From NCBI GenBank assembly GCA_039801565.1, contig JBDRUX010000001.1, positions 51,403 to 115,402 on the forward strand: 64,000 nucleotides of DNA. Direction: 5' to 3'. The notes beneath the pieces were generated by a model. The model saw nothing but the letters and a program-made list of their open reading frames with translations. It was not told the origin of the DNA and searched no databases. Below are positions 9,131 to 63,635 of this stretch, one piece after another. Position 1 is the stretch's first letter. Each line of letters starts with the position of its first letter. This DNA comes from a candidate division WOR-3 bacterium (GTDB lineage Bacteria > Hydrothermota > Tepidihabitantia > Tepidihabitantales > JAOUPE01). Both the position numbers and the translations under genes were made by a program.

Positions 9131-9262
9131 GGTTAGTTAAAACTAACGTTTCCCAATGACCAGTTTTTCTTCTATCATATTGATTATCCAAGTAGTTAGT
9201 CGTAAGACAGCTTAGAGGGAGGGTATGGCGGGGTGGCAGTATCCGGGGCAGTGGCAGGGCTA
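9131..9262 (+). repeat. Copy E (short) of the dispersed repeat family: 16-bp palindrome GTTAGTTAAAACTAAC plus G-rich head TTAGAGGGAGGGTATGGC
   Basis: The palindrome (9131-9146) and head sequence are shared with copy A at 36753. The head matches copies B and D. Confidence 0.5.
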
Positions 9263-9477
9263 GCTTATAAAGCAACCCAATTAGTTGTTTTTGGTACATA
9301 TTCAGACTTTACCTTCGACTCTATCCGAATTACTACTTAGAGGAAAGTTTTCCGGCCTGGTTAGCGAATAGGTTCAAAGGCTGGCTGATAGGATAGAAGA
9401 CAAACAAAATAAGCAGTGAACTGGAAAATTAGATAGTCAATCGCCTGAGAAGATAATCTTCAGTCCCTTCCAGTGGA

Positions 9478-10884
9478 TTAACTGGGATAATCGGTAGGTG
9501 GATAAATCCCTGAAGGCGGTTTGCCAAATTCAGGAATTTCAATTTTTAACTGACGGAGTTTCCGATAAAGGTGGGTTCGGTCAATAGCTAAGACCGCCGC
9601 GGTCCTTTTCAAATTCCAATTGTTACGGGCTAACATCTTTAAGATGTAATCCCGTTCAAATTCTTCCCGGGCTTGTTTGAGCGTAACCAATTTTGATTTC
9701 ACTTGTGGCTCACCTATCTCCATAATTCTAATTAAATCTTCCGCATTGATTTTTGGATTTTTCACCATTATCACTGCCAGTTCCATAAGGTTGCGTAATT
9801 CCCGACAATTTCCGGGCCAGGGTTGATTCTTTAAAAACTCGATAGCATTATCGGTTAAAATCTTCTTCGGCACTCCGTGTTCTTCACAGAGTGTAGTCAG
9901 GAAATAATCGGCTAAGACTGGCACGTCTTCGGGTCGATTCCTTAATGGTGGAATATAGACATTAACCACATTGAGCCGATAGAATAAATCTTCCCGGAAG
10001 CGGTGTTCTTTAATTTCTTCCCATAGATTCTTGTTGGTGGCAGCAATTATCCGAACATCAACTTTATGGGTCTTAACACTGCCTAACCGTTGAAATTCCC
10101 CTTCCTGAATGAATTGGAGTAATTTGGCTTGGGCGGGTAGGCCCAAATCACCAATCTCATCTAAGAACAAGGTGCCGCCATCCGCCATTTCCAACTTGCC
10201 TTTTTTCTGGGTCTTGGCATCAGTAAAAGCCCCCCGTTCGTAACCAAAGAGTTCGCTTTCAATCAATTCCTTAGGTATTGCGGCACAATTGATTTTGTAA
10301 AAAGGTTGGTCCTTTCTTAAACTGCGGAGATGGATGGCTCGAGCCACCAAATCTTTACCAACCCCGCTTTCACCAACAATTACGACGCTCACTTTCTCGG
10401 GTCCAACATTTTCAATTAATTCAAAGATTTTTTTCATTGCCGAAGAAACCCCAACCATCTGGTAGCGTCTTAACAACTCTTCTTTAAGGAGCTGGACTTC
10501 TTTTTCGATTTGCTCCCGTTCCACTGCCCGTCGAATTAACAAAAGCAATCTATTTTTATCAAAATTGCTTTTTTCTAAGAAATCGTAGGCACCCTCTTTG
10601 GTGGCTGCGACCGCATCTTTGACGGTACCGAAACCAGATATGATAATTACGGGTAGCAGCGGATGGATTTTTTTAATTCTTTTCAGAACTTCGATGCCGT
10701 TGATATCGGGTAAAATTAGGTCGAGGAGGACAACATTCAGATTATTTTCTTGCACCAATTTAAGTGCCGACATACCATCTTCTGCCGTAATAACCGAATA
10801 GTGTCCTTCGGTCAATATATTAGTCAAAGTCTGACGGGCTCGCTCGTCATCATCAACAACTAAAACTCGAGGATTTATTATCAT
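9478..10884 (-). CDS. sigma-54-dependent two-component response regulator (NtrC family: REC + AAA+ + Fis-type HTH)
   Basis: REC domain (VLVVDDD...LDLILPD). Walker A GESGVGKDLVARAIH. GAFTDA variant of the GAFTGA loop. C-terminal HTH. Confidence 0.85.
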   Translation of the reverse strand: MIINPRVLVVDDDERARQTLTNILTEGHYSVITAEDGMSALKLVQENNLNVVLLDLILPDINGIEVLKRIKKIHPLLPVIIISGFGTVKDAVAATKEGAYDFLEKSNFDKNRLLLLIRRAVEREQIEKEVQLLKEELLRRYQMVGVSSAMKKIFELIENVGPEKVSVVIVGESGVGKDLVARAIHLRSLRKDQPFYKINCAAIPKELIESELFGYERGAFTDAKTQKKGKLEMADGGTLFLDEIGDLGLPAQAKLLQFIQEGEFQRLGSVKTHKVDVRIIAATNKNLWEEIKEHRFREDLFYRLNVVNVYIPPLRNRPEDVPVLADYFLTTLCEEHGVPKKILTDNAIEFLKNQPWPGNCRELRNLMELAVIMVKNPKINAEDLIRIMEIGEPQVKSKLVTLKQAREEFERDYILKMLARNNWNLKRTAAVLAIDRTHLYRKLRQLKIEIPEFGKPPSGIYPPTDYPS

Positions 10885-10886
10885 GA

Positions 10887-13346
10887 TTAGGCTGGTAAGT
10901 TGATAGTAACGGTTGTGCCAACCCCTTCTTTACTTTGAATCTCAATTGTGCCTTGATGTTTTTCGATAATCTGTTTAGCCAAAGTCAGACCAAGTCCGAT
11001 TCCAGTCGGTTTATCAAAAGTGAAATAAGGGTCAAATACCGATTGCAAATATTTTTCCGGGATTCCCTTGCCAGTATCTGATATCATAACCCTTACCCAG
11101 TTTTTAATTTTGCCTTCAAAGGTTTGGTGAAAAAGCGAAGTTATAACCAATGTTCCTTTGTTTGCCATTGCCTCTACTGCATTATTGATAATAACCTCAA
11201 GGGCATATTCAATTTCTTTTCGGTCAATCCGCACTAAGGGGAGTTTTTCACCTAATTCTAATTTTAATTTAATCCCAGAACCGATGGTTAACGAATATTT
11301 ATCAATAAGTTCTTTTAATATGCGATTAATATCTTCGGCTTGCAAATCGAGTGGAGCGAACCGAGTGAACCGGAGAAAACTATCGGTTAATTTACGCAGC
11401 CTGGCTATCTCTTCCCTGATATTATGGACCAGCTCTTTTGCCCGTTGTTTATCTTCTACTTGGCAGACTTCTGCCAATTGTTCGGTTGCCAGTTGGATAT
11501 TCATTAACGGCGTCCTCATACCGTGCGCCAACTTTTGAGCGACCGGTGCCCAAGTTTCGATTTGACCAAGATGGCGCAATTTCGTAATGTCTTCAATTCT
11601 TAAAGTATAGGTGTTGCGTCGTGGCAACTGATAAAAATTTAGCGATAAAATCTTCTCATCGGCTGCGTCTTTAATTGTAAATGTCTCGTTTTCGAATTGC
11701 TGAAAATCTTTTAGCTTATTGGAAAGTTCTGTAAGCCCAGCCTTTTGCAACTCTGCGAAAAGGTTGGCATTGTTTAAATTCTTGATGCCGAGCAGATTAC
11801 AAGCCGACACATTCGCGACTTTTATCTTTCCTTGGCGATTGAAGAGAATGTAGCCGATTTGGGTAATTTTGCTATAAAATTTCTTGGCAACCCTTTCCGA
11901 GTAAGTTAATAGCCACCACAAGATGTAAGAAATAATCAGCCCTAAAATGATGAGATTGAGTAAAATCGCGTTAAATAAATGTCCGGTCCTTTTAGCAATT
12001 GGGGTTGGTTCAAATCGGTAGAGAATAAACTCGGTTTCATCTTTAGCCGGTTGACTAATCAGGACCTTTTTGGTCTTCTGCTCCCGTACCAATTTAATAG
12101 CTCCTGAATTTAAGCCAACGCCTTGGTCTACAAGACTTTTGGCTAATGGCAATTGGGCGATAACTTTTAACTGATGATTGAAGATCACTAACTTATTATC
12201 TTCGGTAGTGGTGATGATTTCTTTTCGGCCATCGCCAATTAAATCGTAGACTCCCATCACATCGATACCACGATGGTTGTCATAGGTCAAGATTTCATCT
12301 AAATCCGAATTGAAGACTCGAATTTTACCATCTAAGTTACCGGTGATGATTTCATCGCAACCATCAAGGTTGATATCTGAACATGCCATTCCCCAAAAGT
12401 TTTCTCCGGTCTGGATAGATTTTTTTAACTTGCCATCGGGTGTCAAGATTAAAATTTTATCCGATTCATAGGATTCCCGTTTTGAAGATGTAGCTACAAT
12501 CACCTCCTTTCTACCATCTTTATCAATGTCTGAGGCGGCGATTTCGGTTTCACAGAAGTACTCACCGGTTTGTTGTTGCCATAATAATTTACCTTTGCAG
12601 TCCAAAACAATCACATAACTCGCAAGGTCAGTAGTATTATTTGCACTACTGCCATTAGCTGGGGAATAAGTTCCAACAATAATTTCGGGTTTTAGGTCAT
12701 CATTAATATCTTCAACGATTATTTTTACAACGATTGGACCAATCCAATAGTGCCACAGTTCTTTTCCGGTCTTTAGGTCATAAACGGCTAAACCGCGGGG
12801 TTGCAAATCAAAACCGCAGCCAACATTCAATAATAAATCCAAGTTTCCATCGTCATTGGCATCAATACAGTTTATTGCCGTAACCGAGCCATCCCATTTG
12901 CCATCCTGATTCTTATCGGTCATCTTTACGGTGGGCAAGCTCTTTATTAAATTGCCCGATTTGGTTGAACCGTAACAATTAACAATTTCGGTTGCACCTT
13001 TAGTATAACTGGCAAAGATTTCTTTTATACCATCTTGATTGATATCCAAGACGGAAAAAGTTTTAAAACGATTTGATAGAAAATAATAATCCCAACAGAC
13101 CCTTCCCTTTTGGTCTAAAAGTTGCATATTGTAATCGCTGATTTTTAATAATTCATCGGTTTTATCCTGATTGATATCTAAAGGAAAAATTTCGATACCG
13201 GTGAACTTTCGCTCCTCTTTTAAGCAAAATGGCAATTTCTCGGCTGGAATCGCCAAAGAAGTTAAAAATAAAATGGTGATAACCGCCTTCTTTCTCATAC
13301 ACTCATAGCTATTTTGTATAATACAATATCCATTAGTCTCTGTCAA
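10887..13346 (-). CDS. sensor histidine kinase with periplasmic FG-GAP-like beta-propeller sensor domain
   Basis: Signal/TM, then repeated DxNxDGxxEI motifs (DINQDGIKEI, DANDDGNLDL, DIDKDGRKEV, DINLDGCDEI). A TM segment and PAS follow. HisKA H-box (LAHGMRTPL) and HATPase_c (GIGLGL). Adjacent to the NtrC-like regulator on the same strand. Confidence 0.8.
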   Translation of the reverse strand: MTETNGYCIIQNSYECMRKKAVITILFLTSLAIPAEKLPFCLKEERKFTGIEIFPLDINQDKTDELLKISDYNMQLLDQKGRVCWDYYFLSNRFKTFSVLDINQDGIKEIFASYTKGATEIVNCYGSTKSGNLIKSLPTVKMTDKNQDGKWDGSVTAINCIDANDDGNLDLLLNVGCGFDLQPRGLAVYDLKTGKELWHYWIGPIVVKIIVEDINDDLKPEIIVGTYSPANGSSANNTTDLASYVIVLDCKGKLLWQQQTGEYFCETEIAASDIDKDGRKEVIVATSSKRESYESDKILILTPDGKLKKSIQTGENFWGMACSDINLDGCDEIITGNLDGKIRVFNSDLDEILTYDNHRGIDVMGVYDLIGDGRKEIITTTEDNKLVIFNHQLKVIAQLPLAKSLVDQGVGLNSGAIKLVREQKTKKVLISQPAKDETEFILYRFEPTPIAKRTGHLFNAILLNLIILGLIISYILWWLLTYSERVAKKFYSKITQIGYILFNRQGKIKVANVSACNLLGIKNLNNANLFAELQKAGLTELSNKLKDFQQFENETFTIKDAADEKILSLNFYQLPRRNTYTLRIEDITKLRHLGQIETWAPVAQKLAHGMRTPLMNIQLATEQLAEVCQVEDKQRAKELVHNIREEIARLRKLTDSFLRFTRFAPLDLQAEDINRILKELIDKYSLTIGSGIKLKLELGEKLPLVRIDRKEIEYALEVIINNAVEAMANKGTLVITSLFHQTFEGKIKNWVRVMISDTGKGIPEKYLQSVFDPYFTFDKPTGIGLGLTLAKQIIEKHQGTIEIQSKEGVGTTVTINLPA

Positions 13347-13391: not shown

Positions 13392-14340
13392 CTGCCTAAC
13401 CGACTTGACCCCAAAAACGGACTGGGGTGGGAAGGAAACTTCACCTTAGCACACAACGAGAGAGACCCGACCTCTCATATCTATTATTGCAAAATTTGTG
13501 CCAGAAGATTAAATTAAAGTTCGATTTTCTTTCTTATTGTAAAATAATAACTTAAATTAAGGGTCAATTAAACCACTCTTTTTAAAAGTCATTGATGTTG
13601 CATTTATGCAAATTTTGTTGTAAATAAGCAGCACAATTGATTTGGGTGTGGGTCATAATAGATTGCGGTTCTTGACCATTTAGTATGGAAGACACTTGAG
13701 GCATCGCTTCAATCCTTTGTCCACCATAAAGCCAATCTCTTCACTCAATCCTAAATATTACCTATACCGTCACCAATATTGGATCAAATAACAATCCTTT
13801 CTCAGTCTCAAAAAAACGAAACCATTCCAATTTCATAAACAATTATACACAATCGGCTCAATATTTTAACCATTTGGTTGGTAATATTCCGATAGCCACT
13901 ACAGTGGTTGCTTCTCGGAGTGCTATACGGGACTACCGAAGAAGCAAGGAGATTAGTGAATAGAAATTAACGAAGATGTTGCGATGTGATTTATCGCAAA
14001 ACAGCGGTTGTTCGGTAGCGTTGTTGGATTGGCCATTCGTGATGAGGTCAGTTGTGCCAGCATCTTTTGGTTTCTTTGTTTAAGATCGATTCTATCCGGC
14101 TCTTTTAAAAATTTCACTGAAGACGCACCACAAACTCTAAGGCACTTAAGAATTGTATTCAAAGATGAATTTTTTACCCTACCCTTTTCCTGAATTTAAA
14201 GACAAGCCAATACCTTTAGCCACCTCGGCTTGTGACAAATTTACCTTCTGACAGGTTTTAATTAAAAGCTTTACTATTGCTTGGGTTATAATTGTTTAAT
14301 TATTTTAAGGTTTTAAAAAGTATACTATTTAGTATATACC

Positions 14341-14556
14341 AAAAATCAAGCCGAAATTTCTTTTAACTAGTAGCCTCGTAGGTTGGTTCAGGGGTTAGCT
14401 GAGGACCAAGTTCGCAAGCGAGTTGGGAGGCAACTTGGGAAACGGGTTAGGGATTTGGTTAGGAAATTAGCTGGGGAGCTGGTTCGGAGGCGGCCCCGTG
14501 AGCTACCTCAGGGATTGGCTAGTAGGCAAGCTGGAAAGTAAAATCGTAGGCTGACT
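14341..14556 (+). repeat. Copy C of the dispersed 12-nt periodic repeat family
   Basis: Leader AAAAATCAAGCCGAAATTTCTTTTAAC (shared with copy A), then a degenerate 12-nt periodic array (agttgggaggca/acttgggaaacg/ggttagggattt/...) containing cgtagg words. Confidence 0.55.
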
Positions 14557-14662
14557 TTTTCCTAATAATAAAGATTTAAAAAAATAAGATTCTTTCGCAT
14601 CTCAATTTTGCCAATTTTGTTCATATTAAAATCTTAATTTTGCTCACTTTTTGCAATTTAAA

Positions 14663-18965: not shown

Positions 18966-20630
18966 TTACTCCTTTTGCTCTTCACCGGTCAATCTTTTAT
19001 ATTTTAAGAATGCCTTTAATCCGTCATAAGCCAGAATAATTGCCGCAACGAATAAGACCAGTCCAATTATCCCAGCAAAATAATTACCGATAATTGAACT
19101 GGTGGACAATCCTTTTCCGGTTACATCCAATCTCGTTATCGCCTGGCGTAAAACTGAAATACTTGTATAAATTAAAGCACTCATTGTTGTCACATACATA
19201 AATATCATTGGGTAAAAGGTAAAACCGGTGGGTTTCTTTTGGCTAACCAGCCAGACCGAGGCAATCAGTAAGGCAAGGCTTGCCATCAATTGATTGGCTG
19301 AACCGAAAAGAACCCAGATATAATTAAAAGTCCCGGTATAGACCAGGACAAAAGATAAGATTAAGGCAATCAAAGTCCCCAAGATCGGATTTCTTAAAGC
19401 GGGTATCTTTTTGCCCAAAAGTTCATTGGTCGCAATCCGCATAAAACGAACTACCAGATGTAAAATCGTGATTGCCAAAACAACAATCATCACCGGTCCA
19501 TAAGCGTTACCCCAAGTCTTAGGCAAACCGATATAACTAAATATTTCACCCATCCCTTGCCCGAATAGGGTATGCCAGGCACCTTTAGCGGTAGTGACAC
19601 TGACGATTATCAAGGCGATTAAGGCGAGTATCATCTCAAGAAACATCGCACCGGCAGTGACAACCCGAGTATCGGTATCCTTTTCCAATTGCCGAGAAGT
19701 GCCTGTGGAAGAAACATTACTATGCCAACCTGAAATCGCGCCGCAGGCAATCGTCACAAATAGCATTGGCCAAAGCGGCAGCCCATCAGCATTAAAACTG
19801 GTGAAGGCCGGGGCTTTGAAATTAGGATGACCGATGATTATTCCTAAGATTGTGCCAATCATCCCGAATAGGATAATATAAAAACCGAGATAATTGACCG
19901 GTTGGACAAAGACCCAGATTGGTAAGACCGAGCCCAAAAAAGAGAAAAGCAAGGCAAAAATTAACCAGAGCATCTTATTTGCTTCTGGACTGGCTAAGGC
20001 GATTTGGATATGACTGCCGAAAAATAACGCAACATAAAAGATAACAAGCCCGATAATCGTAACCAGAATTAGATTGAATCTAACATAATAGATTAGAAAA
20101 CCGACAATCACACCAGCGATGCCAAGAAAGATTAGCGAAAAGGGGATATTGGGGTTATTAGCCATAAAAGTGGCTACCACATTGGCAAAGGCAGCAGCAA
20201 TTAGTAAGAGATAGAAATAGATAAAAGAGAGTAAAATGATTCGGGTGCGGGGCGAGATTAGAGAGTAAGATATTCCGCCAAAGGTCTTGCCGTCGTTACG
20301 CATTGAGACGATTGCGCTCGTATAATCCTGAATCCAACCGATGAAAAATGTCCCTAAAAGAATCCAGATTAATCCGGGTAGCCAGCCCCATTTGATAGCG
20401 ATGATTGGACCAAGCACCGGTGCTGCCCCAGCGATTGATTTGAACTGATAACCGAAAAGGATATTCTTTGAGGTTGGCATAAAATCAACCCCATCAGCAT
20501 AAAGTCGGGCTGGAGTCGCTCGTTTCGGGTCGGTCTGGATTACTTTTTTGTCATAATATTTGGCATAAATTTGGAACCCAAGATAATATACTATTATACC
20601 AAGGATAATCACAACTACTGAATTCATCAT
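18966..20630 (-). CDS. cstA: carbon starvation protein A family peptide/pyruvate transporter
   Basis: N-terminus (FGYQFKSIAGAAPVLGPIIA) and multi-TM architecture are typical of CstA. Confidence 0.85.
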   Translation of the reverse strand: MMNSVVVIILGIIVYYLGFQIYAKYYDKKVIQTDPKRATPARLYADGVDFMPTSKNILFGYQFKSIAGAAPVLGPIIAIKWGWLPGLIWILLGTFFIGWIQDYTSAIVSMRNDGKTFGGISYSLISPRTRIILLSFIYFYLLLIAAAFANVVATFMANNPNIPFSLIFLGIAGVIVGFLIYYVRFNLILVTIIGLVIFYVALFFGSHIQIALASPEANKMLWLIFALLFSFLGSVLPIWVFVQPVNYLGFYIILFGMIGTILGIIIGHPNFKAPAFTSFNADGLPLWPMLFVTIACGAISGWHSNVSSTGTSRQLEKDTDTRVVTAGAMFLEMILALIALIIVSVTTAKGAWHTLFGQGMGEIFSYIGLPKTWGNAYGPVMIVVLAITILHLVVRFMRIATNELLGKKIPALRNPILGTLIALILSFVLVYTGTFNYIWVLFGSANQLMASLALLIASVWLVSQKKPTGFTFYPMIFMYVTTMSALIYTSISVLRQAITRLDVTGKGLSTSSIIGNYFAGIIGLVLFVAAIILAYDGLKAFLKYKRLTGEEQKE

Positions 20631-21616: not shown

Positions 21617-21919
21617 TCAAGTGCTAATAGTCGGTGGAACCGGTTTCGGTGGCTGAGGAATACCATCCGGTGGCACCGGCTTCGGTGGTTGCGGAATACC
21701 ATCAGCAAAAATCAGAGGAGGTACGGGTTTAGGAGGTTGGGGAATACCATCGGTGTAAAGCCCCGGTGGAACCGGTTTCGGTGGCTGAGGAATACCATCC
21801 GGTGGCACCGGCTTCGGTGGTTGCGGAATACCATCAGCAATCACTGCGAAGACAGTGATCAGGAGCACAATCCATAAAAGCGCGGTAGTATGTCGCACAG
21901 AGCCTCCTTTCTTGGGCAT
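21617..21919 (-). CDS. small membrane-anchored protein with five tandem DGIPQPPKPVPP repeats
   Basis: N-terminal TM (ALLWIVLLITVFAVIA). A 36-nt tandem coding repeat, present 5 times. Confidence 0.55.
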   Translation of the reverse strand: MPKKGGSVRHTTALLWIVLLITVFAVIADGIPQPPKPVPPDGIPQPPKPVPPGLYTDGIPQPPKPVPPLIFADGIPQPPKPVPPDGIPQPPKPVPPTIST

Positions 21920-22085: not shown

Positions 22086-25000
22086 TTAAGAACTCTGGAA
22101 GTCTTCTTTATTGATATTATAACGTCGGAGCAATCGTTGAATTTGTCGCCGATGGGTGGAGAGCATTTGAGCAGCACGACTCACATTGCCTTGGGTGGCT
22201 TTGAGTGCTTCAATTACTTGTTCCCTCTCCAAACTTTTCTTTTGACCTTTCTCAATTTTCATCGTCTTTGCAAAATTAACAATTTTCGGACCGAGATTTT
22301 CTAAACTGATTTTTCGCTTTTGCGCCATTATCACTGCTCGTTCGATTACATTTTGCAGTTCTCGGACATTACCTGGCCAGGGATATTCGGTAAGAATTTG
22401 GGGAATGTTATCTTCAAAACCCAGAATCGGCTTATTGAGTTGTTTCGCATACCGTTTTAAAAAATATCCGGCTAATAGCATAATATCGCTTTTCCGCTCT
22501 CTTAACGGTGGCACCTGAATTGTTACAACATTCAAGCGATAATAAAGGTCTTCGCGAAACCGATTAGCTTTAACTTCTTCTTCAAGATTTTTGTTAGTGG
22601 CACAAATCAGTCGCACATCTACTCTTCTCGGTTCAGTTTCTCCCACCCGTCGAATAATCTTGTCCTCCAAGACCTCTAAAAGTTTTGCTTGGATACTTAA
22701 TGAGGTATTGGCAATCTCATCCATAAAAATTGTACCATGTTCAGCAATTTCGAATAAGCCTTCTTTGTCCCGAATCGCTCCGGTAAAAGCACCTTTGCAA
22801 TGCCCAAATAGTTCGGATTCAAATAGTGTTTCAGGCAATGTGCCGCAGTTGATTGAAACAAATTTGTTGGCACGTCGGTTACTATTGGCATGAATTAATC
22901 GAGCTAATACCCCTTTACCTGAACCAGTCTCACCTAATAATAGCACAGTACAATCAGTTGGAGCTATCTGTTCGATTATCGAATAGACATCCTTTATCGC
23001 TTTAGAACGTCCTAAAAAATAGCCAGTTACCGCATCGGTCAAAATATCCTCCCGCAGCGCGGAAAAATCCTCTTGCATCTTCTTGAAAGCAAAAGAGCGG
23101 TCAATAGTGGCAGCAAGAAGATTGGCTACCGAGATGAGTAAATTTTTGTCTTCTTCGACAAACACATTGGGATTGATTCGGGAATCAAGATAAATTGTCC
23201 CGATAACTTTATCATCAATCCGCAATGGTACACAGACTAAAGAACGAATTTTATTTAATACCACACTATTAGAATTAACAAACCTTGGGTCCGATAAAGC
23301 ATCAGCGCAAATTATCGGTTCCGCACGTTTTTTAACCTGACGAATCACAGTTCGCGAAATTGTATGTGCATCTTCTAAAGTGGTGTGGTCAACATTACGC
23401 GCCGCCACCGGGAATAACTTATCCCCTTGAATTAAGAAAAGAAGACCGCGCTCGGCCTGGGTTACATCAATGATTAAATCTAATAACCGGTCAGCAAAAT
23501 CCTCTTTCTCTAAGTCAAGATTAATTAATTCACTTAATTCATAGAAGACTTTTAAATATTCGCCACGCTCCCGCCCTTTTAATTTATGGGTTGCTTCAAG
23601 TTGACTAATATGATTTAACATATATCTCACCCTTTCTTGTTCAACTTTCGCTCCTAAACTTGTAAAAATTGTCTCAGCCTCTTTTAAATCATCCAATACC
23701 CGGGTAAGTTCCTGTTCCGATAATGGCTTGTAAGTAATTGGTAGGGGCTCGCCTTGGTTATAAGTTTTAGGTGCAGTAAGAAGTAACAGGCTTGCCTGGG
23801 CTTGGTAATAAAGCGATTTTGCCATTTCATATTTTGCACCTAAGCTCCGAAGAATCTCAATACTTCGATTCAATTCTTCTTTCCCATCATCCGTAAAACC
23901 AAGGGCATGTTTAGCTAATCCTCGCCACCGTAATAAAAGGGAGTATAGTCTCGGATTAGCATTATATGCTTGACCTTCTGCTGCTGGTAAAGTTAATAAA
24001 TTCTGAGCTCGTTCACAGGTGGTTAAACACTTAGACCAATCGGCTTCAGCCGCCCGTATCCCAGCTGCAGTTAAAAGCATTTCAATCAATTTCTGTTTAT
24101 TTCCTTTCGCATAAATTCTTTGCACATTAAGGGCAAGGGCAAGAGATTTAATTGCTGAATCTACTTGATCGCGCATCAAGTGTAATTTCGCCCAAGCTAA
24201 GTAAATTTGACCCAAAATTTGTTGATTTTTGTTCTGTTTGGTCAAATTTTCTGCTTCTTTAAGCAAAGGTTCAGCATCAATGAAGTCGCCTTTTTTCGTA
24301 AATAGATTAGCCAGATTAATTAGTCCGATGACCAACCCATTATCGTCCCTAATATTTTGCCGAATTTCGATATCCTTTTGGTAATAAGCGGTTGCTTTTT
24401 GCCAGTCCCCCATCTCTTCTAAGATAATACCTAGGTTACACAATGTATCACCCAATCCGGCTGAATCACCAATTTTTTCGCAGAGTTCTTTTGCTTCTTT
24501 AAAATATTCTAAGGCTTGATGCCAATCGCCAGTTTCAAAATCAACCAAACCAAGACCCTGAATGGTACGAATCCGAAAGTAAACATCGCTCAATTCCCAA
24601 AGTGGTGAGGATAGGATGGAAGAATAAGTTTCTTTTGCCTTATTTAATTCCCCTTTCTGCCAGTAGATTGTCGCTAAGAACTGACCAATTTTTCCCCGGA
24701 GATTGGACTTGGAAGAAATCCAGTTTGATTCTACTTCTTCTCGCGCAGGGGCTGGTTTCTCATATAATGCAAGACCACGATTCGCATATTCTAAGGCCAA
24801 ATCAATCTCCCCTTTATACCAGGCAAGGGCACTCATTCCATAAAGAGTTCGTGCCTTTAGGTCAACCAACGATTCGGAATTTTTTAAATCAATCGTTTTT
24901 AAGGCTAAAGAATAAAACTCCTCGGCTTTCTTAAAATCACCTTTAGCGGTTAACGACCAGCCGATGTCATTCCAAAGGGTTATTGTTCCAACTGCGTCTT

Positions 25001-27428
25001 TTTCTTTAAGGGTGGTGAGTGCTTGTTTGAAATAACTGATTGATTCATCTACTTTACCTTGTTTCTGATAGATTAGTCCTAATCGGCGCAAAACACTGGC
25101 TAATAGCGAAACATAGTTGGGTTCTCTTCTTAAGGTATTGTCGGAAAAGAGAATACCCAGTCCTTGAGTATAAATGTCAATGGCATCGGCAAAGCGTCCC
25201 GTGATTTCCCGCAAGCGCCCAACAGCTTCAATTAACTCAATCCGTTCTCGGGCTGATACAAAGTTGGATGATAAGGCAAGCGCAGTTTCATAAAAACCAA
25301 GTGCCAATTCTGTCAGATTTAATCTTTTTGCTTTGGCTCCTGCCTCACGACAATAGTTAAAAGCTCGATCTTTTATCCCAGCCTGGGTGTAGTGGTGAGC
25401 TAAATCAAAAAGGTAACGATCTTGTTCCCGCGGGTAAAGCAATTCGATTGCCAGGGCAACTGAGCGATGATAATCCCGTCTTTCTTGCACACTAATTCCT
25501 TCGGTAATAATCGCTTCTAAGGTCTTGGAGGATAAGACAAAACCATCCGAATCGGGTAGGGGGCGCAGTAAATTAATCGCCCGTAACCTTGAAAAAATTG
25601 AATAGAGGAGATGTTCCTCATAACCTAAAACCGCACGAACAAAATCAACTGTGAAAGGAGTTCCAGTAATCGCTCCCACCTTTAAAACTTCTAATTCTTC
25701 TCGAGTGAGAGTACTCAGTCGTTCTTTAATCAGCGAGTAGACAGTGTCTGGTAATTTGAAATCGCCTGATGTCAATCGGTTACGGTCTAATCTCCAACGA
25801 CCGTATTCCAATTGAATGACCTTGCTGGCCAAAAGGGAATAAAGCGATTCAATCACAAATAGTGGATTACCGCCGGTACTGGCAAAAAGCCAGGTGCTCA
25901 ACTCGGCGCTTGATGGATGAGGACCAAGAATTGCTTCCACTAAAAGTTGAGTCTCCTCTTGAGTTAGTGGACCAAGCGTAATGTGTTGAAAAAATTCTTT
26001 TCCCAAAAATTCTTTACTGAGTTCTAAAATTCTCCGCTCATTCAAACTGCTCACCACCACAAAAATTTTCTCCTTCTCAATGCTAAATCCTAAGAATCGG
26101 AGAAATTCGAGACTCATTGAATCAAATAATTCAAAATTATCAATCAGCAATAAAAGGCTGTGTTCAACCTTTGATGAATTAGCTAACGCTTTGAGCTTTT
26201 TTATTATTTCTTCAAATAATTCATATTTTGTTGCCTCGTCTTCCTGCTTTGCTACAATGTTTTTGATATCTTTACCATCATAAATTGATAAATTAGCTAA
26301 AATGTCTTCAATTAAAGATGGGGGGCGAGCACCTAATGCAGTATGAGCCGATTGTAAAATTGAAACACCTTCTAATTTAGCGAGAAATTTAAATTCTTGT
26401 AAAAGCCTACTTTTACCCACGCCGCGTTCCCCGGTGATAAAAACTAATTGTCCATTTGAACCTTTGGCTGATTCTAACCGGTTTCTAAGAACGTTTAACT
26501 CATTTTCTCGGCCAATAAAACTCGAAGCTTGAAGAGAAAAAACACCTTCTCCGCTTCGCCGAATGCCAATAGTCGGTATTTTTTCCTTTAAAGATTCTGG
26601 TATTATATCACTTATCGTCTCGATAACTTCTAAGGCAGAAATTGGACGCCGAAAAGCATCCCGTGCGAGTAAACGCATACAAAGGTTAGAAAACTTCTCG
26701 GGGATTTTGCTATCAATCTCACTTGGTGGCGCGAAGTTGGAATAATATTGAGTCCGTAGCCAATTCCGTAAATCTGTTTCGGTTGACGGTCCCCGACCGG
26801 TTAGGATTTCATAAATTACCATACCTAATGAGTATAGGTCAGCCCGACCATCCGCTTCGGTTCCCTTAAAAATTTCTGGTGCAATGTAACCAAGTGTTCC
26901 GCGTGGTATCTGATTGGAAGAAGAGAAATAATTAGCAAACCCAAAATCTAATAATTTGGCTCTTGCCTTGTTACCGGTGTCAGAGTCGATCGCCGTATTG
27001 ACCAGGATATTCTGAGGTTTCAAATCACAATGAATTAATCCCTGGCTGTGAATAGTATCTAAGGCATACAATATCTCAATCAACACTAATAATAAATCTT
27101 CGGAATATCCTTTAAAAAATTTGTTAATCGGCGCACCTGGAAAATATTCCATTGTAAAGAATGGCTTTCTTTCAGTTATCCCAAAATCGAAAGGTGCGAC
27201 AATATTCGGATGATTAAAGCGACTGAGCATGAAAAATTCTTGATTTAATTGATTCTCAATTTCTTTTGTCGCAGGTTCTCGGGAGATTTTTAGGGCTACG
27301 ATGCGGGCACCAACCAAATCCTTTGTTTTGTAAACCTCAGTTATTTCACCACCACCCAGATAATCTAAAACCTGATAACGGCCGGCAATTAAACTGCCGG
27401 TTTTAAAAGCACCCTCTTTTTGATTCAT
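22086..27428 (-). CDS. Giant multidomain regulator: Ser/Thr protein kinase + STAND/AAA ATPase + TPR array + GAF + sigma-54 activator (AAA+) + Fis-type HTH
   Basis: Kinase motifs HCDLKPQN, DFG and APE. A P-loop GERGVGKS follows the kinase. About 600 aa of TPR-like repeats. A GAF-like region. An EBP core with GETGSGKGVLARLIH and intact GAFTGA. A C-terminal HTH (NVSRAAQMLS). Confidence 0.8.
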   Translation of the reverse strand: MNQKEGAFKTGSLIAGRYQVLDYLGGGEITEVYKTKDLVGARIVALKISREPATKEIENQLNQEFFMLSRFNHPNIVAPFDFGITERKPFFTMEYFPGAPINKFFKGYSEDLLLVLIEILYALDTIHSQGLIHCDLKPQNILVNTAIDSDTGNKARAKLLDFGFANYFSSSNQIPRGTLGYIAPEIFKGTEADGRADLYSLGMVIYEILTGRGPSTETDLRNWLRTQYYSNFAPPSEIDSKIPEKFSNLCMRLLARDAFRRPISALEVIETISDIIPESLKEKIPTIGIRRSGEGVFSLQASSFIGRENELNVLRNRLESAKGSNGQLVFITGERGVGKSRLLQEFKFLAKLEGVSILQSAHTALGARPPSLIEDILANLSIYDGKDIKNIVAKQEDEATKYELFEEIIKKLKALANSSKVEHSLLLLIDNFELFDSMSLEFLRFLGFSIEKEKIFVVVSSLNERRILELSKEFLGKEFFQHITLGPLTQEETQLLVEAILGPHPSSAELSTWLFASTGGNPLFVIESLYSLLASKVIQLEYGRWRLDRNRLTSGDFKLPDTVYSLIKERLSTLTREELEVLKVGAITGTPFTVDFVRAVLGYEEHLLYSIFSRLRAINLLRPLPDSDGFVLSSKTLEAIITEGISVQERRDYHRSVALAIELLYPREQDRYLFDLAHHYTQAGIKDRAFNYCREAGAKAKRLNLTELALGFYETALALSSNFVSARERIELIEAVGRLREITGRFADAIDIYTQGLGILFSDNTLRREPNYVSLLASVLRRLGLIYQKQGKVDESISYFKQALTTLKEKDAVGTITLWNDIGWSLTAKGDFKKAEEFYSLALKTIDLKNSESLVDLKARTLYGMSALAWYKGEIDLALEYANRGLALYEKPAPAREEVESNWISSKSNLRGKIGQFLATIYWQKGELNKAKETYSSILSSPLWELSDVYFRIRTIQGLGLVDFETGDWHQALEYFKEAKELCEKIGDSAGLGDTLCNLGIILEEMGDWQKATAYYQKDIEIRQNIRDDNGLVIGLINLANLFTKKGDFIDAEPLLKEAENLTKQNKNQQILGQIYLAWAKLHLMRDQVDSAIKSLALALNVQRIYAKGNKQKLIEMLLTAAGIRAAEADWSKCLTTCERAQNLLTLPAAEGQAYNANPRLYSLLLRWRGLAKHALGFTDDGKEELNRSIEILRSLGAKYEMAKSLYYQAQASLLLLTAPKTYNQGEPLPITYKPLSEQELTRVLDDLKEAETIFTSLGAKVEQERVRYMLNHISQLEATHKLKGRERGEYLKVFYELSELINLDLEKEDFADRLLDLIIDVTQAERGLLFLIQGDKLFPVAARNVDHTTLEDAHTISRTVIRQVKKRAEPIICADALSDPRFVNSNSVVLNKIRSLVCVPLRIDDKVIGTIYLDSRINPNVFVEEDKNLLISVANLLAATIDRSFAFKKMQEDFSALREDILTDAVTGYFLGRSKAIKDVYSIIEQIAPTDCTVLLLGETGSGKGVLARLIHANSNRRANKFVSINCGTLPETLFESELFGHCKGAFTGAIRDKEGLFEIAEHGTIFMDEIANTSLSIQAKLLEVLEDKIIRRVGETEPRRVDVRLICATNKNLEEEVKANRFREDLYYRLNVVTIQVPPLRERKSDIMLLAGYFLKRYAKQLNKPILGFEDNIPQILTEYPWPGNVRELQNVIERAVIMAQKRKISLENLGPKIVNFAKTMKIEKGQKKSLEREQVIEALKATQGNVSRAAQMLSTHRRQIQRLLRRYNINKEDFQSS

Positions 27429-27464: not shown

Positions 27465-27557
27465 CAATAAAGTGCGACAGATGTTTGTCGCATTTAGAAA
27501 TGCTATGTTTTATCAATTTAAATAGTTAAAATAATCTATGTAGGGGAGAATATAGAA

Positions 27558-27631
27558 TGGGCCGTGCAGGACTCGAACCTGCGGCCACCGGATTAAAAAT
27601 CAGGTGCTCTACCAGCCTGAGCTAACGGCCC
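27558..27631 (-). tRNA. tRNA-Lys (anticodon UUU)
   Basis: Reverse complement GGGCCGTTAGCTCAGGCTGGTAGAGCACCTGATTTTTAATCCGGTGGCCGCAGGTTCGAGTCCTGCACGGCCCA. The 7-bp acceptor stem, D arm and T arm (GCAGG/CCTGC) pair correctly. Anticodon loop TT-TTT-AA. One T-C mismatch occurs in the anticodon stem. Confidence 0.8.
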
Positions 27632-27721
27632 ATTGAGATTTTTTATATAGATTTTACTCAGGTTAAAACTTGCACTCATTTTACTGAAAAGTTATTTTAT
27701 TGTCAATAATAAACATCCCCC

Positions 27722-36629: not shown

Positions 36630-36752
36630 TTACAAACTTAGGTGACCAAACTCCGAAGTCGGCTTTAAGGCTATCTGATTGGCTATTAAAGTCAATTTGG
36701 CTTGCGTTAAGTTTCTTCGCCATTGCTTCAGTAACAATCAACATCACAAAAG

Positions 36753-37050
36753 GTTAGTTAAAACTAACACCAAAATCGAGCCGAATTTCTTTTAACCTTT
36801 TGATATTTAAATATCTTATATTTAAGATTGCTTTGGGAGGGGGTATGGCCTCGGGGCAACCCCGTAGGCTACCCCCTAAGTCTTCCTATAGGTTGCTTGG
36901 GGAGTTACTTCGGCAGCTGATTGGCAGGTAGGTTCGGGAGCGACTTCGCAGGCAACTCCCGAAGCGGGTTAGAGAACAATCTGGCAAGCACCCTCGGGAG
37001 TTGGTTTGGGGGCTACCCCCGTAGGCTACATAGGAGTCTGCTCGTAGGCC
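36753..37050 (+). repeat. Copy A (full length) of the dispersed repeat family: palindrome, leader, promoter-like AT stretch, G-rich head, then 12-nt periodic array
   Basis: GTTAGTTAAAACTAAC (36753-36768). CAAAATCGAGCCGAATTTCTTTTAAC. TTGATA-N17-TAAGAT. TTTGGGAGGGGGTATGGC. About 200 nt with 12-nt periodicity, co-linear with copy B (ccccgtaggctaccccctaag, ggttcgggagcgacttcg). Confidence 0.6.
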
Positions 37051-37363
37051 AGCAATAGAATCTTTTAGAATTCATCAATCCTGGTTTTTAATGGCTCCTG
37101 ACGGATGACTAATATTATCAGAGAAAAATGAAGTTTTAACATTTAGGTAGCGGGTATTATCGGGGAAGATATTAGAGAATGCGAAGCGACTCTTCAGGTG
37201 CAGAGTTTAAATTTTATGCGTTAGCAGATAGTATTTAGGAGTGGATTTGGTCCGCCTTTGAGAGAAAAGAAAAAAGCGAAACATCCGCTGACAATTTTCA
37301 TTTATGAGAGAGATTCCTAAAATTTACCCTTGACGAGTTGTTTTTTCTAATTAATATTATAAA

Positions 37364-50466: not shown

Positions 50467-50711
50467 TAAAATGAATGCACAATTAACGACCGCAAGCAAT
50501 AAATTTTCCTTGACAAAGTCCTAAACCGAGTTATGATTTTATGTAATTCTAATGGTTGCGAAGCAATGGACTTGGGGTTTGGCAGCGATTTTACCGAAGG
50601 CGATAAAATTTTAGGAATTGCTCTTTTCCTTTATTTTTGTGAACAGACTGATTCGCCACAAACCTAATGGCGAATCGGTTAAAACTTGAAAACAAAAAGA
50701 AGGAGGAACAA

Positions 50712-53700
50712 ATGGATTTCAGCAGTAATAAACAAAAGAGGTTAGGCAAGAAGACCTGCTTTTCGATTTTTACCTATATGCTAATCCTATTAGCACTCGT
50801 AAGCACCGGACTCCAAGCTGGTTCAATTACCGAAAAGTTCAATTTTGCAAAAAGTGAAATAGGATTCAAGAAGATTGGCGAATTCGATTTGCCGGTAATA
50901 CGGGATTGGCTTTATACCGCGGAGGTTGGTAAGCCAATGATTCCTTATCTAATTTTTCAGGTTTTAGTTCCACCAACGGCAGAAGTTACTGAGGTAAAGG
51001 TCTTGTCATTTAAGAAAGTTGAAGTTGAAGGCAAATATTATATTCATCCCAGTCAACCACCAGTGCCAATTTCTTACAAAGGCGAGATTCCTTTTGTGCC
51101 ACCTGATGAAGCAACTTATAATTCAACTGAAGAGTATCCAGCCCGGTTGGTTGATTTTGTGCCGACTGGTTCAAAAAGTGGCTACCGGATTGCTGGGGTT
51201 GAGGTTTATCCTTTACATTATGTGCCTAAGGAACGGAGGCTTTTCTTATACACCGAACTGGTCTTAGAAATTATTTATGAAGAAGGTAAGGTTGCACCGC
51301 AACTTTTAACCGAATCCCAGAAGAGACTTTTTGGTCAAGAAGTGCGAAGTTTAATAATCAACAAAAAGGATTTAAAACGTTTTGAACCACCGACGAAACT
51401 GATTGACCAAGGTAACGAGATTGATTACTTGATTATAACCAGTAGCACCTTGGAATCGAATTTCCAGCCCTTAGCCGAATGGAAGACTAAAAAAGGCTGG
51501 AACACCAAAATTCGAAATACTAACTGGATAAATACTAATTATTCCGGCCGGGACTTACAAGAAAAAATCCGAAATTACATTCGAACCTGTTTCGCCGATT
51601 CAGGTTTGAAGTTTGTGCTTCTGGCAGGTGATAATTCGATAATCCCAAAACGAGGAACATATGCCTGGGTTTCACCTCATATTGACAGTTTCATACCTTG
51701 CGATTTGTATTTTGCTGATTTAGATTGGAGTTGGGATGGTAACCAAAACAATGTTTTTGGCGATACTTGGACAATAGGCGGTAGGCGAGACACGGTTGAC
51801 CTTTATTATGATGTTTACATCGGAAGGGCATCAGTAGAAACAGCGAGCGAAATTTCCAATTTCTTGAATAAATTATTTACCTATGAGAAGAATCCAAATA
51901 CTGATTACATCAAAAGAATCCTTTTACCTTGGGGGGTACTATGGTCAGGTTATGATAGCAAACAATCGCAAGATTCGATAGCGAAATATACACCGGCTGG
52001 TTGGACTGACCGCTATATCAATGATACAAGAGTGGTTAATGAAGTTAGGGATTCGTTAAATAATGGTTTTCAATTCTGCCATTTGGTTGGGCATGGCAAT
52101 GATGTTGGGGTTTATTGGACAAGCACCGGACCAGCAATGTATCATACCGGCCATCCCGGAACACAGACCAATGTTAATAAGTATCTTATTGCTAATTCGA
52201 TTGCTTGCTATCCAGGTAATTTTGAATACTCGGATTGTCTTGCTGAATCTATGGTGAATGTCCAGAATTGTGCGGTGGCGGTGATTATGAATTCAAGATA
52301 TGGTTGGGGAACGCCGCCTAACATTGGTCCTTCAGAACTTCTTGATTTTCAATTTTATTATTTCTTTTTTAATTATGATACCTTCCGAATCGGTATCACC
52401 CATGCCGAATCGAAAGAATTTTATCGGAACTCAGCTCTTAACCAACAGGTTTGGCGTTGGTGTTATTACGAGTTAAATCTCTTTGGTTGTCCGGAGATGC
52501 CGATGTGGCAGGATGTTCCTTTGACAATGACTCTTGCCTTTGACGATACAATAAACACTGGTAGCCAAACTTTTACTGTAACCGTCACTGACCCGAGTGA
52601 TGCGCCGGTTGTGAATGCTTTAGTTTGTCTTTGGAAAGGAAATGAAGTTTATGTGCGGGGGTATACTAATGCCAGCGGTATCGTTAACTTTACAATAAAT
52701 CCTACCACTGTTGGTCAAATGTTTGTTACCGTCTCGGCTTTTAATCATTACCCGAAAGAGGATACTTGTTACATTATTGAGCAGAACGAGGATGTCGGCG
52801 TTACGACTATTATTACACCAACCGGCAATATTGACTCGAGTGCGGTCTCCTCAATTATACCTCAAGCAACAATTCATAACTATAGCATTTCCGATACGCT
52901 AAGTTTCCCAGTAATTTTCTATATCTATGACAGTGGCTGGAATTTAGTATGGGCGGATACTCAGCAGATATTAGACCTTGGTCCTAACCGCGATACGACA
53001 ATAAATTTTGCTGCTTTAGGCATTGAATTGTCACGTGGCATTTATAACACTAAATGCACAACCGCCCTGGTTGGTGATATTAACCCATCCAATGACTGGC
53101 AGGATAGTTCATTTACGGTTATTGTCCACGATGCTGGGATGATTGATATTGTGACGCCAACCGGACTTATTAAGAAAAATAGTGTTATCACACCTCAAGT
53201 AACAGTGCGGAATTTTGGCAGTGTTAGAGATTCTTTTGATGTGATATTAACGATTGGAGCGACTTATGTTGATACCGTCTTCACAACCCTTGACCCTAAC
53301 AACCAAACAACACTTAGTTTTAATCCTTGGACCGCAACTGCAATTGGGACATTTCAAGTTCGCTGCACCACCGCTTTAATTGGCGATTTAGTCACAGTCA
53401 ATGATACTTTATCGGATTCGGTAATAGTCTACGATGATGATGTCGGTGTGGTGGCAATTTTGGAGCCAGTTGGTCCGACCGATTCGACTGCGACGATTGT
53501 GCCCCGCTGTAGTGTTTACAATTATGGTTCATCACCAGCTACTTTTTCGGTTACTTTTAGAATCTTAGAAGCGGGTTATAGCAATACGCAAACCGTTACC
53601 GCATTAGCCCCCAATACCGGCACAGCGATTCCTTTTGCGCCCTGGTTGGTCGGGCCAAGGGGCAATTATACGACAAGATGTTCAACCGGAATGAGTCCCG

Positions 53701-63214: not shown

Positions 63215-63333
63215 GAAGACCAGCAGAAAAGAATCTGTAAAATAGTCAAAAACTTGAAATATATTTCAACCTAAAAATGACCGATTTTTTCGTCTATCGT
63301 GTTGGTCTTCCGTCGGTTACACCAATTTTCCCT

Positions 63334-63635
63334 TAGGGAGGGGGTACCGTATAGGGGGTGACCCCGTAGGCTACCCCCTAAGCTATCCCGTAGGTTGCTT
63401 GGGGAGTTGCCTCGGGAGTTCCTTCTGGAGCTGGTTGGTAGGCAGGTTCGGGAGCGACTTCGTAAGCAACTTCCGAAGCAGGTTAGGAGGCTACTTGGGG
63501 AGCAACCAGGGGAGCTACCCCGTAGGCTGCCCAGTAGGCTACCTCGTAAGCAAGCCGGTAGGCTGGCATCTTTCCCAATTTCGAAATTCGAAATTCTTTA
63601 AGAAAACCCCGTAGGCTACCTCGTGGGCTGGGGTT
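63334..63635 (+). repeat. Copy B (full length) of the dispersed repeat family: G-rich head plus ~15 units of a 12-nt periodic array
   Basis: Head TTAGGGAGGGGGTACCG. The ccccgtaggctaccccctaag word is shared with copy A. Units ggttgcttgggg / agttgcctcggg / agttccttctgg / agctggttggta / ggcaggttcggg ... with consensus rGCnrsyTnGGr. The ORF-track ORFs at 63395 and 63399 are translations of this array. Confidence 0.6.

Follow-up and report, generated by a model that had tools for sequence, protein, structure and literature searches.

GacA-type response-regulator boxes keep one consensus, TGTAAG-N6-CTTACA. XRE-type C proteins, on the other hand, bind palindromes directly ahead of the genes that encode them; these genes are often leaderless, and the operators fall into about 10 motif classes (PMC2632904). 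The site described here is a 16-bp near-palindrome, GTTAGTTAAAACTAAC, from a window of 64,000 nucleotides (the whole stretch of DNA that was analysed) belonging to a candidate division WOR-3 bacterium. A first, sequence-only reading had compared it to a site of the GacA kind. Comparison with homologous elements from related genomes led us to a different view: on balance, we consider it probable that the near-palindrome is an XRE-type operator within a divergent promoter region, and that it is orphaned in this window.

The near-palindrome within a dispersed repeat family

An exact-match search of the 64-kb window located GTTAGTTAAAACTAAC at exactly two places, both on the + strand, in the repeat copies designated A and E. 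The motif consists of 7-bp arms, GTTAGTT and AACTAAC, flanking a non-self-complementary AA centre; its reverse complement mismatches at two positions, so the earlier description as a perfect 16-bp palindrome does not hold, and the truly perfect form, GTTAGTTATAACTAAC, is present in related genomes. In copy E the arms can be extended, with one mismatch, to AAAGGTTAGTT and AACTAACGTTT. That the two sites are identical was correctly noted by the sequence-only reading, as was the position of the second; the first, placed at 9131-9146, was off by one. Both sites share the upstream flank AAAGG, and both are followed by a conserved box, the element TTGATw-N17-TAAGAy and a G-rich head (GAGGGAGGGTATGGC at 9215-9229 in copy E and GGGAGGGGGTATGGC at 36835-36849 in copy A). 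Because homology reaches beyond the motif on both sides, the double occurrence reflects common descent within a repeat family, not chance.

Several further points of the sequence-only reading were borne out. The distance from the start of the motif to the GGGTAT of the head, which it gave as the same in both copies, is 89 nt in copy E and 88 nt in copy A. Its claim that the palindrome is position-locked to the repeat heads agrees with the palindrome class TTAGTTAWAACTAA, for which all 10 sites that occur in 570 kb of related DNA have their 3' end 69-71 nt before GGGGGTAY, in a sample that is biased because its loci were fetched via the element. The leader that it reported before copy C was found at 14337-14367 with one substitution and small indels, and its promoter-like element, placed so that it could start transcription at the G-rich head, occurs in copies A and E and in many relatives.

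About 50 homologous elements from WOR-3 metagenomes share a single rigid layout. Read along the G-rich strand, it begins in many cases with TTGGTATTTTTGTGCCAG and continues with AAAAG, the inverted repeat and a 22-nt box (consensus TCGACCCAAAATTTCTTCTAAG, with AAAA or TTTT before it); then come 41 nt, GGGAGGGGGTAYCGCCTAGGGGGTGACCCC, a 12-nt-periodic tract and a 3' GGGGGTAGCCCCC hairpin. The interval between the end of the box and GGGGGTAY measures 41 nt (40-42) in all copies and is filled by one of three or four alternative modules, of which modules 1 and 2 carry a -35/-10-like pair placed for a transcription start at the head and module 3 has no -35. The TTGGTATTTTTGTGCCAG-type motif had no further occurrence in the window. 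A sigma-54 promoter within it, judged by eye, was rejected: on one strand the GG-to-GC spacing is 1 nt short, and the other strand has no -12 GC.

A metagenome scan with the head pattern gave 56 loci, about 42 of them true members. When one genome per species was scanned with the box-plus-head pattern, only one species representative, a MAG from WOR-3, had the family, in 17 copies or more; the remaining matches were all single chance ones. Judged by these scans, the cassette is known from one uncultured bacterial lineage (WOR-3) alone. Contigs often end at the head, which would be expected of a multi-copy repeat. In close relatives the element lies elsewhere in the genome, with no copy upstream of glgC; copy A was accordingly dropped as a candidate glgC leader, the element not being syntenic upstream of glgC at the orthologous loci of relatives. 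Of 33 loci, about 24 have a convergent gene next to the tract, and half of these convergent genes are T9SS cargo genes.

Other repeats were observed alongside the family. A second dispersed repeat, of the type AACCACAGATTAACACAGATAAACACAG, made of short ACAGA/CACAG units and intergenic in these WOR-3 genomes, occupies the upstream flank of the element at loci L007, L033, L042, L076 and L090. A conserved linker, TTCACTAGCCACTATGCACTAGTCACTGATTTTTT, followed by a second, headless G-rich tract, lies 3' of the tract at L016, L033, L038, L050 and L053; compound arrays therefore exist. Within the window, a gene with a T9SS tail runs off the end on the minus strand from 63680. The ORF at 50667-59168 (+ strand, 2833 aa) has internal repeats of about 636-645 nt, and Kelch-type beta-propeller repeats of about 153 nt occur in its C-terminal part and recur in the next-but-one protein (61325-63214, + strand), which ends in a T9SS sorting domain. 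Near-perfect tandem repeats of 36, 48 and 132 nt (GGTGGAACCGGTTTCGGTGGCTGAGGAATACCATC...) at 21630-21840, on the 3' side of the gap between the ORFs 18966-20630 and 22086-27428, probably encode a repetitive linker on the minus strand.

What stays constant in the family is the place of the inverted repeat, and what changes is its sequence. Directly 5' of the box, at least 7 Watson-Crick pairs can be formed in 42 of 52 distinct copies (mean 8.5), as against 21-22% of shuffled regions or random AT-rich windows (mean 5.4), and the spacing of the repeat to box and head is constant to within 1 nt across divergent copies. The 52 copies contain 19 distinct 7-nt arms, with three to four pair types per ring of the repeat and symmetric changes; the four copies of the window alone hold three different palindromes, GTTAGTTAAAACTAAC in A and E, TATACTAttTAGTATA in C and TTGAAATATATTTCAA in X. 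Mismatches are without strand preference (8 GT/TG vs 5 AC/CA), and several classes are perfectly symmetric through the centre, two features to be expected of a site read as double-stranded DNA more than of an RNA hairpin. If both predicted divergent starts are right, the palindrome lies between them and is hence untranscribed, which also argues against a role as an RNA hairpin.

The predicted opposite-strand promoter and the XRE-family gene

In a subset of copies, an XRE-family HTH gene (Pfam HTH_3/HTH_31) starts 10-55 nt past the inverted repeat on the opposite strand. At every XRE-family locus examined, five of them reached independently via a protein search, the element lies upstream of the gene in an unchanged register; that search gave only 51 clusters of this XRE family, and the named sources are all WOR-3. 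Only the HTH domain of the protein was recognised, the C-terminal part having no match in Pfam or PHROGs. A small ORF after the XRE gene (MAIGFTKYRIKIE..., L099 3684-3959) is fused in frame in longer members (C-termini of P0131 and P0132); many XRE genes are thus frameshifted, and the intact protein, whose C-terminal domain is uncharacterised, has at least about 300 aa.

Consensus matches to a sigma-70-type promoter for this gene occur in fixed register. The opposite-strand -35 coincides with the 5' end of the box (TTGATT, TTGACT or TTGACA), and the inverted repeat takes up the spacer of 16-17 nt and extends into the -10 (TATAAT, TACAAT, CATAAT, CACAAT, TAGAAT or TAATGT), so that the pattern TTGAYT-N16/17-TAnAAT would place a dyad-symmetric site over the promoter of the regulator gene. 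Near-consensus examples are TTGATT-N17-TATAAT (L030), TTGATT-N16-TACAAT (L053), TTGATT-N17-CATAAT (L093 and L045) and TTGACA-N17-TAATGT (L106). Since the XRE start codon stands 5-16 nt past the -10, many of the mRNAs would be leaderless. Palindrome class appears to track HTH subfamily despite the shuffling of the 41-nt modules: the class-1 palindrome, TTAGTTATAACTAA, pairs with an RIGIKTK(S/Y)G subfamily (L099, L106, L107) and the class-4 palindrome, TGCCTAnTAGGCA, with an LGKEIGQ...GYISRLE subfamily (L093, L045, L081), a match that is based on three loci per class and is confounded by physical linkage.

Most copies, A, E and X of the window among them, have no XRE gene, yet the inverted repeat is retained in them. 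Solo copies generally have a degenerate minus-strand -35 (TCGAtt) and a -10 from which the final T is absent. What the window retains of the gene is remnants only (Table 1). In copy A, where the 17-nt spacer of the promoter holds most of the palindrome, the first 13 or so codons, MLIVTEAMAKKL, resemble MFIFNKEMAEKL of intact XRE N-termini, and beyond them the similarity is gone; XRE homology stops ahead of the TspO gene, and copy A is a truncated cassette. No ORF of at least 90 aa was called in the pseudogene region of copy C, and no XRE gene was found in the window at copies E and X.

Table 1. Features of the four repeat copies in the window (positions counted from the first letter of the window)
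Feature	Position	Strand	Basis
Copy A near-palindrome GTTAGTT-AA-AACTAAC, proposed XRE-type operator	36753-36768		Exact match; palindrome class 1 (TTAGTTAWAACTAA) at the same place in relatives
Copy A sigma-70-like promoter: -35 TCGATT (36779-36774), N17, -10 TAACCT (36756-36751)	36751-36779	-	Sequence match, in the register of intact XRE cassettes
Copy A XRE-gene 5' remnant, ATG at 36744-36742, 7 nt past the -10	36700-36744	-	Alignment with L099, L106, L107
Copy A conserved box CAAAATCGAGCCGAATTTCTTTTAAC; 5' end is the minus-strand -35	36771-36796	+	Family comparison
Copy A promoter-like element TTGATA-N17-TAAGAT	36800-36828	+	Read from sequence; position kept in module types 1 and 2
Copy A G-rich element: head hairpin and degenerate 12-nt-periodic tract	36835-37055	+	RNA fold -103 kcal/mol, z -2.7
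Copy E near-palindrome, same sequence as in copy A	9132-9147		Exact match
Copy E conserved box	9152-9175	+	Family comparison
Copy E promoter-like element TTGATT-N17-TAAGAC; -10 weak, without final T	9180-9208	+	Read from sequence
Copy E G-rich element: head and short truncated tract	9215-9265	+	
Copy C inverted repeat TATACTA-tt-TAGTATA; same place relative to the box, other sequence	14321-14336		
Copy C minus-strand promoter: TTGATT (reverse complement of 14344-14349), N16, TAGTAT (reverse complement of 14322-14327)	14344-14349; 14322-14327	-	Consensus match, good
Copy C XRE-family pseudogene, fragments LSQAEVAKGIGLSLNSGKG* and ..ILKCLRVCGASSVKFLKEPDRIDLKQRNQKM	13953-14300	-	Comparison with P0122-P0134
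Copy C 12-nt-periodic tract; without head and without plus-strand promoter module	14368-14560	+	
Copy X perfect 16-bp palindrome TTGAAATA/TATTTCAA, same place	63254-63269		
Copy X G-rich element	63336-63572	+	RNA fold z -3.4 (+ strand), -1.3 (- strand)

We propose a divergent promoter region with the 16-mer as its dyad-symmetric core, within a cassette that appears to be specific to the WOR-3 lineage. In an intact cassette, the opposite-strand sigma-70-type promoter, with its -35 (TTGAYT or TTGACA) in the box, would drive the XRE gene, often as a leaderless transcript. By analogy with XRE/Cro-type repressors and with the C proteins of restriction-modification systems, a dimer of the XRE regulator would bind the palindrome; the bound protein would control its own promoter and possibly also the predicted back-to-back promoter of the G-rich element some 40 bp away. 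Paralogous cassettes would have different palindromes for different HTH subfamilies. Both GTTAGTTAAAACTAAC copies are orphaned, copy A with only about 13 codons left and copy E with the gene absent, from which it follows that the site is a relic or the target of an XRE paralogue elsewhere in the genome; it has probably been left behind or works at a distance.

Some observations temper the operator reading. Palindrome class and HTH subfamily could match simply because the two lie only 10-55 nt apart and were duplicated together with their cassette; the retention of the repeat in gene-less copies with degenerate promoters fits recent copying, or another function, equally well; and a TA to AA mutation at the centre breaks the symmetry in copies A and E. 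A more far-reaching form of the proposal, which we put forward tentatively and do not expect to hold in full, is that these are members of an undescribed multi-copy WOR-3 cassette composed of an XRE regulator and a divergent, highly structured RNA of about 230-300 nt built from 12-nt units, that its regulator/operator pairs fall into at least eight orthogonal specificity classes, and that the orphans in the window remain active, as trans-acting sites that control non-coding RNAs of a new class.

The nature of the G-rich element

The 12-nt period of the tract is evident in the window copies, where identity at lag 12 is 0.43-0.60 as against about 0.25 at other lags; 12 nt is about one turn of an A-form helix. 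Compared with dinucleotide shuffles, the RNA folds of the G-rich strand have a mean z of -3.8 and those of the other strand a mean z of -2.45, and among 34 copies the G-strand is the better folder in 27. About 93% of the cells of the head hairpin are paired, and the variation is almost entirely from G-C to G-U, changes that the G-rich strand alone tolerates; the covariation of the hairpin is one-sided and not significant against shuffles. GGA or GGGAG motifs recur about every 12 nt in the G-rich RNA.

A protein-coding tract, with a glycine-rich four-residue repeat, was considered and rejected, as the pattern resides at the nucleotide level and a start codon is not conserved. Of 32 tract copies, 23 do have one open frame. 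TGA, however, is depleted in all three frames, so the depletion of stops is not frame-specific. Many copies either offer no start in that frame or carry a stop shortly before the conserved head; the variable codons keep a fixed G at the second position (R/S/C/G/W), and the tracts of copies A and E are out of frame. Taken as a whole, the pattern suggests that the G-rich element is probably a structured RNA rather than a protein gene or an inert repeat.

An Rfam search of the window gave tRNA-Lys as the sole match and none to the G-rich element, and a search of four element loci at a permissive E-value gave only hairpin-type matches far below threshold; no account matching the element was found in the literature on small or non-coding RNAs of WOR-3. 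The tRNA-Lys gene (UUU; 27557-27632, minus strand) has upstream of it, up to 27710, the sigma-70 promoter TTGACA-N17-TAAAAT, which indicates that the organism uses canonical sigma-70 promoters. The element might also belong to the convergent gene as its 3' UTR, or its C-rich strand might serve as a Rho-utilisation site; this possibility is retained as a minor one only, because several convergent genes have terminators of their own ahead of the tract (L007, L032 and copy X of the window) and because the C-rich strand folds worse than the G-rich one.

Alternative readings and comparison with known systems

Could the inverted repeat instead be a structural hairpin, a weak intrinsic terminator or insulator that stops transcription from entering the cassette and isolates the promoter of the element? 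Such a hairpin would act on C-rich-strand read-through in most copies, and both ways where an A-run and a T-run flank the stem. The compensatory variation of the arms suits this idea, as does the prevailing convergence of the tract-side neighbours. So do the flanks: AAAAG stands directly 5' of the repeat in about two thirds of the copies, giving a hairpin plus CUUUU on the C-rich strand, and in about a third (some 15 of 52) there is a T-run 3' as well, an arrangement that has, by sequence, the form of a weak intrinsic terminator. The GC-rich stem-loop with a U-tract that marks a Rho-independent terminator was, however, not found: the stems are rich in AT and weak, at -2 to -13 kcal/mol, next to the GC-rich clear terminators of this genome, the U-tract is present on one strand only in about two thirds of the copies, and class-4 copies have neither A nor T runs. 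The reference terminator at 1892-1915, between two convergent genes, is canonical, GC-rich and bidirectional (GAAGGCGGTC-TTTT-GACCGCCTT, with flanking A/T runs). The convergent genes that possess a terminator before the tract, the lack of a G-U over A-C bias, the symmetry that in several classes runs through the would-be loop, and the location of the repeat in the spacer and -10 of a good promoter in intact cassettes likewise speak against termination, which we regard as unlikely. We think it quite unlikely, too, that the repeat is a functionless relic, carried along as part of a ~350-nt element copied by transposition, gene conversion or recombination, with conservation in solo copies reflecting nothing but youth. 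High copy number in the one MAG and the breaking of assemblies at the head are what such copying would produce, and decay is apparent both in the degenerate promoters of solo copies and in the window, with its truncated gene, its pseudogene and the frameshifted or short tracts of A and E. Against this, the differences between arms are paired and preserve symmetry, unlike random decay, and the divergent copies hold the spacing of box and head within 1 nt.

Two further readings seem to us highly improbable. One takes the hairpin and box as the DNA target through which a recombinase or HUH-type nuclease would mobilise the element, in the manner of oriT, REP/RAYT or the ends of IS200/IS605. A variable hairpin adjoining a conserved box, in a multi-copy, dispersed family with shuffled modules, is compatible with it; yet the family has no linked gene for a transposase or relaxase, a search for terminal inverted repeats and for target duplications of the element gave none, and the 3' end has a different, GC-rich hairpin. 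The other is the model of the sequence-only reading, a GacA/UvrY-type upstream activating site at about -75 of a sponge-RNA gene like rsmY, rsmZ or csrB. In systems of this kind all sRNA copies share one palindromic consensus, also across species, the site stands about 60-80 bp ahead of the sRNA start, and a cognate NarL/FixJ-type response regulator goes with a CsrA/RsmA protein that is titrated by GGA motifs in hairpin loops. The geometry of this model has a counterpart throughout the family, the centre of the repeat lying about 74-76 nt upstream of the presumed G start (itself placed from -10-like hexamers) at a constant box-head spacing, and the strongly structured RNA with its recurrent GGA/GGGAG motifs would also suit it. 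The repeat, however, varies in sequence at a fixed position, even among copies in one genome, and is therefore not one conserved GacA-type box; it has no likeness to the GacA consensus, many 12-nt units are without GGA (e.g. CGTAGGC and CCTAAGT), Rfam has no matching family, and the gene linked to the family encodes an XRE protein, not a response regulator. Beside copy E lie a sigma-54-dependent response regulator and an FG-GAP/histidine-kinase pair (9478-13346, minus strand). The window encodes just this one response regulator (9478-10884), which belongs to the sigma-54-dependent NtrC type, and no sigma-54-type -24/-12 promoter was seen at the element near copy E; as the element adjoins unrelated genes elsewhere, this regulator is an incidental neighbour. 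The analogy with response-regulator boxes was thus given up. The broader notion of a regulator site survives, binding by a regulator being the most likely explanation for a palindrome position-locked in its family, and so does the RNA half of the claim that the elements are regulated RNA genes and not inert repeats, given the folding of the G-strand and the G-C to G-U changes in the head; control by a response regulator is the part that falls away.

If the site is indeed an XRE operator, the palindrome is what can be seen of a WOR-3 cassette of XRE regulator, operator and 12-nt-periodic G-rich element, present in tens of copies per genome and now decaying. The family would then offer a natural set of matched regulator/operator variants and a candidate new structured RNA that has no Rfam counterpart, and it would explain why WOR-3 assemblies break at these sites. 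For annotation, palindromes of this type should not be read as response-regulator boxes, nor should the open frame in the tract be called a gene.

Among described systems, the operators that XRE/Cro-C1-type regulators have in their own promoters, above all the C-boxes of restriction-modification controller proteins, offer a close likeness: a dyad site upstream of a small XRE-type gene overlaps a sigma-70 promoter, the transcripts are often leaderless (in WOR-3 by prediction), and several operator classes go with protein subfamilies, as they appear to do in WOR-3. Unlike the C proteins, the WOR-3 proteins are longer (about 220-330 aa), with their uncharacterised C-terminal part, and the cassettes are linked not to restriction-modification genes but to the divergent 12-nt-periodic G-rich element; the site is a single palindrome in place of a double C-box, and most copies are orphaned. 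The boxes of GacA/UvrY at rsmX/Y/Z and csrB/C share with it a palindrome placed about 75 bp ahead of where a small, structured and G-rich RNA, with several copies in a genome, is presumed to begin, whereas the WOR-3 site differs between copies and has no response regulator linked to it. At oxyR-oxyS, gcvA-gcvB and sgrR-sgrS, too, a regulator gene stands back to back with a gene for a non-coding RNA, which in the WOR-3 cassette is a probable one, and the binding site, in WOR-3 a putative one, lies in the short gap between them; those regulators are of the LysR or SgrR type and single copy, and the WOR-3 cassette is XRE-type, multi-copy and decaying, with a putative RNA. With the REP/BIME, Correia, BOX and MITE-like repeats the family has in common tens of intergenic copies per genome, often past gene ends, as well as hairpins, a modular build and a tendency to break assemblies. 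It differs from them in its much greater length (about 350 nt), in having no terminal inverted repeats, and in its promoter-like modules, its 12-nt-periodic tract and its ancestral link to a regulator gene.
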